Assembly (NCBI GenBank): GCA_000002435.2
Contig: AACB03000033.1
DNA from: Giardia intestinalis
Lineage: Eukaryota
Direction: 5' to 3' (one strand)
DNA length: 17,765 nucleotides
The notes beneath the pieces are model-generated. The model saw only the letters and a program-made list of their open reading frames with translations. It was not told the DNA's origin and made no database searches. This document shows positions 3,719-3,796 of the stretch, piece by piece. The position numbers and the translations under genes are program-made. The stretch's first letter is position 1. Each line of letters starts with the position of its first letter.

Positions 3719-3796
3719 CTTGGGTAGTGAATGCTGTACAATGGGTGATAGTGTGTGATAGAGGGTGATAGTGTGATGATAGTGTGATAGTGGAGT
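3719..3796 (+). repeat. Inter-unit spacer. PolyA signal 3726-3732, then 5 GTGATAG-like repeats (3746-3790), then the conserved box.
   Basis: This spacer has the largest copy number of the minisatellite in the window. The out-of-frame ATG at 3802-3804 reads atg cac aaa ggc tga. Confidence 0.8.

Follow-up and report, generated by a model that had tools for sequence, protein, structure and literature searches.

Arrays of pseudogenes for variant-specific surface proteins (VSPs) in Giardia are thought to be a reservoir for new surface antigens, and to our knowledge no cis-element that marks or mobilizes their cassettes has been defined. The arrays themselves, their short stop-containing spacers and the cassette hypothesis have been known since 2010: linear VSP arrays have spacers with a mean of 60 bp and a maximum of 241 bp, which contain stop codons, and their downstream members, which lack the PyAATGTT initiator, have been suggested to act as cassettes for recombination (Adam et al. 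2010, PMC2996952). The same arrays are called pVSP arrays in a 2022 preprint (10.1101/2022.03.07.483299), and telomeric pseudo-VSP arrays occur in G. muris (PMC7641422). VSP switching in Giardia is described as epigenetic and not recombinational (PMC2996952). Here we analyze a stretch of 17,765 nucleotides from contig AACB03000033.1 of Giardia intestinalis (the window), and in particular a short repeat with the core TGATAR that occupies every boundary between the VSP cassettes of the window.

A cytosine-free repeat at every cassette junction

The window is a head-to-tail array of 10 5'-truncated VSP cassettes (U1 to U10) of Giardia intestinalis WB, two of them cut by the window edges. Translation of the window gives nine in-frame CRGKA ends followed by a stop codon, every one of them on the + strand and not one on the opposite strand, with stop codons ending at 1834, 3718, 5653, 7579, 9380, 11195, 13110, 15036 and 16962. 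The units between these ends match Pfam VSP (PF03302) with E = 1e-38 to 1e-43, and the C-terminal 427 amino acids of U3 (unit 3797-5653) are 100% identical to XP_001705784.1, a VSP of Giardia lamblia ATCC 50803. The headless VSP cassettes proposed in an initial annotation of the window are supported. The frame of each cassette begins directly behind the repeat's final TAG with WS(E/V)ICT..., at the equivalent of residue 103 of an intact VSP, and U3 aligns to residues 103-708 of the 708-amino-acid intact VSP P0005. Each cassette is thus missing ~102 N-terminal residues, signal peptide included, together with the initiator and start codon. The first in-frame ATG lies 40-193 codons into the cassettes, and the nearest initiator-like string in the window, ACAATGTG, is a 6/7 match that is out of frame and followed by a stop.

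The nine junctions (J1 to J9) are numbered in the order of the window, and offsets run from the end of the stop codon (for J2, the stop ends at 3718 and the poly(A) hexamer at 3726 is +8). Their features are as follows.

1860-1885, + strand: J1 repeat zone, three TGATAG cores (GGTGATAGTG TGTGATAGTA TGATAG) at 1862-1885
3744-3790, + strand: J2 repeat zone, five TGATAG cores at 3746-3790, with a 20/21-nt two-unit duplication; the junction singled out in the initial annotation
5679-5704, + strand: J3 repeat zone, three cores at 5681-5704, identical to J5
7605-7640, + strand: J4 repeat zone, four cores (TGATAA, TAATAG, TGATAG, TGATAG), identical to J6
9406-9431, + strand: J5 repeat zone, three cores, identical to J3
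11221-11256, + strand: J6 repeat zone, four cores, identical to J4
13136-13161, + strand: J7 repeat zone, three cores, a hybrid whose left part is as in J1 and right part as in J3
15062-15099, + strand: J8 repeat zone, four cores, one of them TGATAA, at 15064-15099
16988-17013, + strand: J9 repeat zone, three cores, identical to J1
3718-3734, + strand: extended VSP poly(A) signal ACTTGGGTAGTGAATGC at J2, with the AGTGAA hexamer at 3726-3731
1834-1850, 5653-5669, 7579-7595, 9380-9396, 11195-11211, 13110-13126, 15036-15052 and 16962-16978, + strand: extended poly(A) element at the other junctions
3604-3818, + strand: conserved junction block, shown for J2 and present at every junction, from the last ~114 nt of one cassette to ~30-40 nt of the next

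All 21 exact copies of GTGATAG in the window are on the + strand and within the nine inter-unit spacers, in agreement with the initial annotation of a repeat at every unit boundary. Shuffled sequences contained 2.9 +/- 1.6 copies (maximum 9; 0/200 reached 21), and TGATAG was observed 38 times compared with 8.6 expected. All nine junctions descend as paralogues from a single ancestral spacer, so this enrichment does not represent nine independent events. The 7-nt tandem (GTGATAG)n of the initial annotation did not hold up: successive cores are spaced by 10, 10, (11) and 8 nt, the last step being 8 nt, and Tandem Repeats Finder (TRF) reported periods of 10, 20, 18 and 8, never 7. The unit is better described as approximately KGTGATAGNR, ~10 nt long with the core TGATAR. 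At J2, TRF identified a period of 10 (4.1 copies, 84% matches, score 61) and a period of 20 (2.0 copies, 95%); at J8, the corresponding values were 4.5 and 2.2 copies, and the junctions with three cores gave weak rows only. There are three TGATAR cores at J1, J3, J5, J7 and J9, four at J4, J6 and J8, and five at J2, so that the copy numbers annotated initially were correct (3 at 1862-1885, 5 at 3746-3790, 3 at 5681-5704 and 4 at 15064-15099). An alignment of the nine junctions contains indels of 10 and 21 nt; copy number thus shifts by whole units, as replication slippage, proposed initially, or out-of-register exchange would give.

Spacers are 59-80 nt long and share one layout, consisting of the stop codon TGA, CTTGGGT, AGTGAA, TGCTRTACAATG, three to five TGATAR-core units and TGGAGTGWGATATGCAC, which after the last repeat unit already represents VSP coding homology. 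The description of the repeat as G/T-rich was right in direction and understated, since the zone is wholly cytosine-free: there is no C in the scanned 34-55-nt zones at any junction, which take in the TGGAGTGW that opens the next cassette, and cytosine-free runs extend over 44-65 nt at all nine junctions (1856-1899 at J1). No Rfam family matches the repeat, and its fold z-score of +0.34 indicates neither a stable RNA fold nor hairpin potential, and a reading as an RNA element was ruled out on both counts. By direct reading, a G-quadruplex was also ruled out (two GGG runs per repeat and no four-run pattern), as was a triplex: about one third of the repeat zone is T, and there is hence no homopurine tract. 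As a string match, the TGATAG core fits WGATAR, the binding-site pattern of GATA factors. The antisense of the spacers is G-free and almost stop-free (for example 3278-3910, 6942-7859 and 14494-15219, - strand), which mechanically produces antisense open reading frames (ORFs) of 150-300 codons across junctions; there is no evidence that these are genes.

At all nine junctions the repeat sits between the poly(A) signal and the opening of the next frame, as annotated initially. The signal is ACTTGGGTAGTGAATGC at eight junctions and ACTCAGGTAGTGAATGC at J6. ACTTGGGTAGTGAATGC includes the A of the stop codon and CTTGGGT/AGTGAA, and it has one mismatch to ACUUAGRUAGURAAYRY, the consensus of the extended VSP poly(A) signal found just past the stop codon (10.1101/2022.03.07.483299). 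With the hexamer at +8 and the usual Giardia hexamer-to-cleavage distance of 13-15 nt (PMC9014877), cleavage is predicted at +21 to +23, and the repeat begins at +26, ~3-5 nt past the predicted site. The poly(A) variant AGTGAATGCT (for example at 3726-3735) is present at 9/9 junctions of the window and at 7/7 junctions on three further contigs that carry VSP arrays (L014, L015 and L016). The variant AGTAAACG is used by 6/6 standalone VSP genes (ends at L001:11974, L002:6678, L003:8453, L012:8329(-), L012:13991(-) and L013:11791). Judging by the strings, AGTGAATGCT appears to be a form of the extended VSP signal that is specific to arrays.

It had been proposed that TGA and TAG in all three forward frames make read-through fusion of neighboring units impossible. 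Stops in all three forward frames are present in seven of the nine spacers, and one frame is stop-free within the spacer at J1 and J9. The VSP frame of the upstream unit encounters 4-6 extra stops at 9/9 junctions, two of which come from the poly(A) signal itself (TAG TGA at +7 to +12), and neighboring cassettes are in one frame at 7/9 junctions. In other WB arrays, ORFs of an old annotation run through a repeat in 6-nt register: the N-termini are MLYSDSDSAMWCGGDSDS... in P0003, P0009, P0011 and P0116, and the annotated ORF P0006 carries ...GDSDS..., likewise read through from a 6-nt-register repeat. N-termini of the form MLYSDSDS(DS)AMWCGGDS... in the old annotations of WB arrays fit an ATG in AGTGAATGCTGTAC followed by (GATAGT)n, and back-translation suggests that AGTGAATGCTGTAC and (GATAGT)n encode them. 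A protein search with the spacer-derived N-terminus MLYSDSDS... gave no candidates. The density of stops does not appear to have been selected for; with one frame open at J1 and J9 and the 6-nt-register form read through elsewhere, the stops appear incidental. They differ in frame between successive cores because the cores are 10 or 8 nt apart, and the cassettes are already untranslatable as VSPs for want of the initiator, start codon and N-terminal residues.

Array specificity and possible origin of the repeat

The same spacer architecture is present at seven junctions on L014, L015 and L016, which are independent European Nucleotide Archive (ENA) metagenome contigs; these and the comparison loci were traced via homologous proteins. 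These junctions consist of AGTGAATGCTNTAYARTG followed by KGTGATARNR units, with 4, 4, 4, 4, 8, 1 and at least 5 cores, and contain 13 paired-core matches. Their flanks are only ~80-84% identical to the window, which makes the three contigs too divergent to serve as orthologous alleles between isolates. By contrast, there were no pairs of TGATAR at most 5 nt apart in 89.6 kb of other Giardia DNA (L001, L002, L003, L012, L013 and L017). The repeat is absent past the stop codons of the six standalone VSP genes, which end in ...AGTAAACG..., and upstream of three intact VSP starts (L002:4624, L013:9722 and L012:13493(-)). In this sample, the repeat is restricted to array junctions. Joint Genome Institute (JGI) metagenomes were also scanned for the conserved 3' end of VSP genes; the eight contigs obtained are GC-rich, have neither a VSP-like 3' flank nor the repeat, and are taken as chance matches.

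Two assemblage B (GS_B) loci were considered as further arrays and ruled out because they are not canonical CRGKA-to-cassette arrays, and so was a P15 locus, a single VSP with an internal stop. At the latter (L013:9722-11791), the VSP is annotated from an internal methionine, a normal initiator and leader lie 280 nt upstream, and there is an in-frame TAG in the N-terminal part. At L017:4190-4260 (GS_B), a VSP leader relic that has lost its ATG (ATCAGCGTTGTTAGCAATC) lies past a truncated VSP. The P15 internal stop and the GS_B leader relic are other routes to VSP pseudogenes.

The repeat is not bound to a single point of 5' truncation. On L015, the cassette behind the eight-core repeat begins ~50 nt farther upstream in VSP coordinates (GLLFIGGCY...), a truncation point different from that of the window cassettes, which open with (Q)WSEICT.... 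Homology of the cassettes to a full-length VSP gene (L003) begins just 3' of the repeat, at AGTGGAGTGAGATATGC in the window and at GGGACTTCTCTTCATAGG on L015. As possible seeds of the repeat we considered a relic of initiator and leader, the stretch that codes for CGDGYF, the one that codes for SEIC (AGTGAGATATGC) and generic VSP 3' flank. The spacer at 5672-5686 (ACAATGTGTGATAG) contains ACAATGTG, a 6/7 match to PyAATGTT, and the TGATAG that follows resembles the common leader ATGTTGTTGATAGC; the real VSP start at L013:9722, for comparison, is GCAATGTTGTTGATAGCG. From this likeness, ACAATGTGTGATAG may be a relic of a VSP initiator and leader. This idea is weakened by the first ~35 nt of the spacer, which align best with ordinary VSP 3' flank (...CGATGAGGGTG...). 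Where the unit resembles the VSP leader or coding strings close by, the matches are too short to choose among these seeds.

Instability within a conserved block and its possible causes

The units flanking the junctions fall into types: A (U1, U3 and U9), B (U2 and U10), C (U4 and U8), D (U5) and E (U6), with U7 a mosaic.

1-1834, + strand: U1, type A, cut by the window edge, CRGKA end with stop
1886-3718, + strand: U2, type B, unbroken 610-codon frame without initiator, start codon or signal peptide
3791-5653, + strand: U3, type A
5705-7579, + strand: U4, type C, 5' 350 nt identical to U6
7641-9380, + strand: U5, type D, 5' 400 nt identical to U7
9432-11195, + strand: U6, type E, mosaic
11257-13110, + strand: U7, mosaic of a D-type 5' end and an A-type remainder
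13162-15036, + strand: U8, type C, 99.3% identical to U4
15100-16962, + strand: U9, type A
17014-17765, + strand: U10, type B, cut by the window edge, frame shifted by a 1-nt deletion near 17095

Compared pairwise, the nine junctions average 83-100% identity between J-114 and J+62, 74-92% up to about J+102, and 55-75% beyond on either side. The repeat thus lies inside the most conserved block of the array, which also holds the transmembrane domain, CRGKA, the stop codon and the poly(A) signal. Within this block the repeat is hypervariable. The 99%-identical 3.5-kb duplicates at 4166-7695 and 11623-15154 show 35 differences, of which 11 are confined to the 78 nt that the repeat occupies (binomial p = 1.6e-10), and others cluster right beside it. 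The spacer holds four of the eight differences that separate U1-J1 from U3-J3. The two extra cores of J2 correspond to one 20/21-nt two-unit duplication, and the J7 spacer is made up of J1's left half and J3's right half. Copy number mostly tracks the downstream unit's type; J2 and J8 (five versus four cores) are the only recent duplicates in which it differs.

Copied tracts cross the repeat. One is common to J3, J5 and J7 and extends from J-83 to J+401 (past the stop codons, 5654-6054 = 9381-9781), and another is common to J4 and J6, from J-119 to J+468 (past the stop codons, 7580-8047 = 11196-11663). Several blocks of at least 97% identity end at J+33 to J+118, a clustering that is in part an alignment effect of copy-number differences; other ends are at J-383, J-134 to J-83, and J+401 to J+468. 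A-type cassettes precede B-type or C-type neighbors, and the type switch is inside the spacer. The array as a whole is a mosaic of segmental copies, with internal breakpoints 350-470 nt into cassettes.

We hold with moderate confidence that the repeat is a slippage-prone, cytosine-free junction sequence of VSP pseudogene arrays, in WB and on WB-like contigs, which was co-amplified with the cassettes and would have no selected function. It would have been carried along at each cassette duplication and would change faster than its surroundings as whole units are gained, lost and reshuffled, either by slippage during replication or by exchange of junctions out of register. The stops would arise because the core consists of two stop codons that overlap, TGA and TAG, and recurs at intervals not divisible by three, and the cassettes would be protein-silent mainly because they lack the initiator, ATG and signal peptide. 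The position, composition, unit-step variation and hypervariability of the repeat and, within the sample, its array specificity are observed, whereas slippage as the mechanism and the lack of a selected function are inferred. Several points weigh against such an interpretation. The motif persists at array junctions whose flanking coding DNA is down to ~80% identical, and the same repeat precedes the two different truncation points of L015 (YFLFMGGCY...) and the window ((Q)WSEICT...). Such persistence could reflect constraint rather than hitch-hiking, although homogenization of junctions by gene conversion, together with the self-renewal of tandem repeats, would give the same outcome. The clustering of identity-block ends at J+33 to J+118 is also what a role in recombination would predict, and the sample beyond the window is small, comprising seven junctions and ~90 kb of control DNA from several assemblages.

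Such a recombination element, in which the repeat, alone or with the conserved VSP 3' end and poly(A) signal, serves as a boundary that is fragile or provides homology and promotes or delimits unequal crossing-over and gene conversion of cassettes, like the 70-bp repeats for trypanosome VSG donors, is unlikely in our view, while deserving more weight than the other alternatives. The repeat is directly 5' of every silent cassette, several blocks of high identity end at J+33 to J+118, the switch from A-type to B- or C-type sequence is inside the spacer, J7 has a hybrid spacer, the differences that separate recent duplicates are concentrated at the repeat and close to it, and array members have already been proposed as recombination cassettes (PMC2996952, PMC7641422). 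However, the tracts shared by J3/J5/J7 and by J4/J6 run across the repeat and have both ends elsewhere, other mosaic breakpoints are well inside cassettes, and the clustering of endpoints is, as noted, partly an effect of alignment. The repeat has no hairpin potential, four-run G-quadruplex pattern or homopurine tract. Moreover, it is absent 5' of the three intact VSP starts and so, on this small sample, has no upstream homology to offer a recipient gene. A more specific proposal is that the TGATAG repeat is a dedicated cis-element of the silent VSP archive, fragile or protein-bound, that starts breaks or template switches at cassette boundaries. We consider this quite doubtful; if it were true, headless cassettes could be reshuffled and copied into expressible VSP genes, and antigen diversification in Giardia would gain a layer based on recombination, comparable to the 70-bp-repeat system of trypanosomes.

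Selection for the stops themselves, as a translational insulator that bars cassette fusion or headless translation, would account for the 4-6 extra upstream-frame stops at every junction and for the closure of all three frames in seven spacers; neighbors that share a frame at 7/9 junctions would fuse without stops. Yet the native TGA and the TAG TGA derived from the poly(A) signal already end the frame, J1 and J9 leave one frame open, and the (GATAGT)n form in other WB arrays is open in two frames and is read through from the ATG in AGTGAATGCTGTAC. Pseudogenized VSP array genes were, in addition, essentially untranscribed in G. muris (PMC7641422), and we regard this explanation as improbable. 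A role at the 3' end, either in assisting cleavage and polyadenylation at AGTGAA or in terminating transcription before the next cassette, would fit the start of the repeat at +26, just past the predicted cleavage site, and the G/T-rich 3' flanks that several standalone VSP genes also have there. Its composition is similar to that of metazoan CstF-binding elements, which are G/U-rich. In Giardia, however, GU-rich motifs are depleted and not enriched downstream of cleavage sites (PMC9014877), CstF orthologues are of low confidence, and no auxiliary elements are known (PMC9014877; PMC11529991). The six standalone VSP 3' flanks without the repeat, and a copy number that is free to vary from 1 to 8, make such a role very improbable.

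Three side observations concern the cassettes. All eight complete cassettes (8/8; window 1886-16962) are unbroken ORFs of 579-624 codons despite having no start, which suggests recent duplication, homogenization, or selection for coding potential as donors. U10 equals U2 over the first 132 nt past the stop codon, after which one G of a GGGG run is missing (CCAGAATGGGGCAG versus CCAGAATGGGCAG; U10 17085-17100 compared with U2 1957-1972), and the frameshift leads to stops from codon 30; this may be either real pseudogene decay or a homopolymer assembly error. In A-type coding regions, the 11-mer AGGTTGATACA occurs twice as an imperfect tandem duplication (90% match) that leaves the frame intact, at 1183-1204, 5002-5023, 12459-12480 and 16311-16332.

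The repeat offers an inexpensive sequence tag with which arrays can be located and delimited even where assemblies are fragmented, a candidate marker of polymorphic length with which isolates could be typed, and a concrete site at which to ask if junctions are where cassette exchange starts. Should it be no more than a slippage-prone scar, as we hold most likely, its contribution to a system known since 2010 is one of descriptive detail.

Comparison with known systems

The spacer repeat motif, its C-free composition, variable copy number and restriction to arrays are not mentioned in the VSP-array papers, as far as the searched portions of these papers go. A full-text literature search for GTGATAG together with Giardia returned only unrelated subjects, judging by titles, and searches with related terms gave no description of the repeat. 

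The 70-bp repeats of T. brucei are one point of comparison, and the initial annotation had drawn an analogy to the boundary repeats of silent antigen-gene donors. The positional part of this analogy stands: a strand-asymmetric repeat is right 5' of each silent cassette, at 9/9 junctions in the window and 7/7 on L014-L016. As in the T. brucei VSG system, a conserved C-terminal/3' block is at the 3' side of the cassette, and the cassettes are arrayed, silent and mosaic. The functional part fared less well. The Giardia unit is ~10 nt long with a TGATAR core, instead of ~70 nt with a run of TRR/TAA triplets; no copy was detected upstream of the three intact VSPs, a small sample; two copied tracts in the window cross it; and VSP switching in Giardia is described as epigenetic (PMC2996952). 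The parallel is thus positional only.

Ordinary microsatellites and minisatellites at junctions offer a closer match. Like these, the repeat consists of degenerate head-to-tail units that change in whole-unit steps of 10 and 20/21 nt, with a density of differences far above that of the flanks, strand asymmetry and no predicted structure. Unlike these, it has few copies (three to five), so that TRF finds only some junctions well, and it is kept across divergent arrays and two truncation points, which is more persistence than a random scar needs.

The window conforms to the linear VSP arrays of Giardia. Its units end in CRGKA, are arranged head to tail and are mosaic in a manner consistent with recombination; its stop-containing spacers of 59-80 nt are within the published range; its downstream members keep open frames without a PyAATGTT initiator or signal peptide; and each unit is followed by the extended VSP poly(A) signal.

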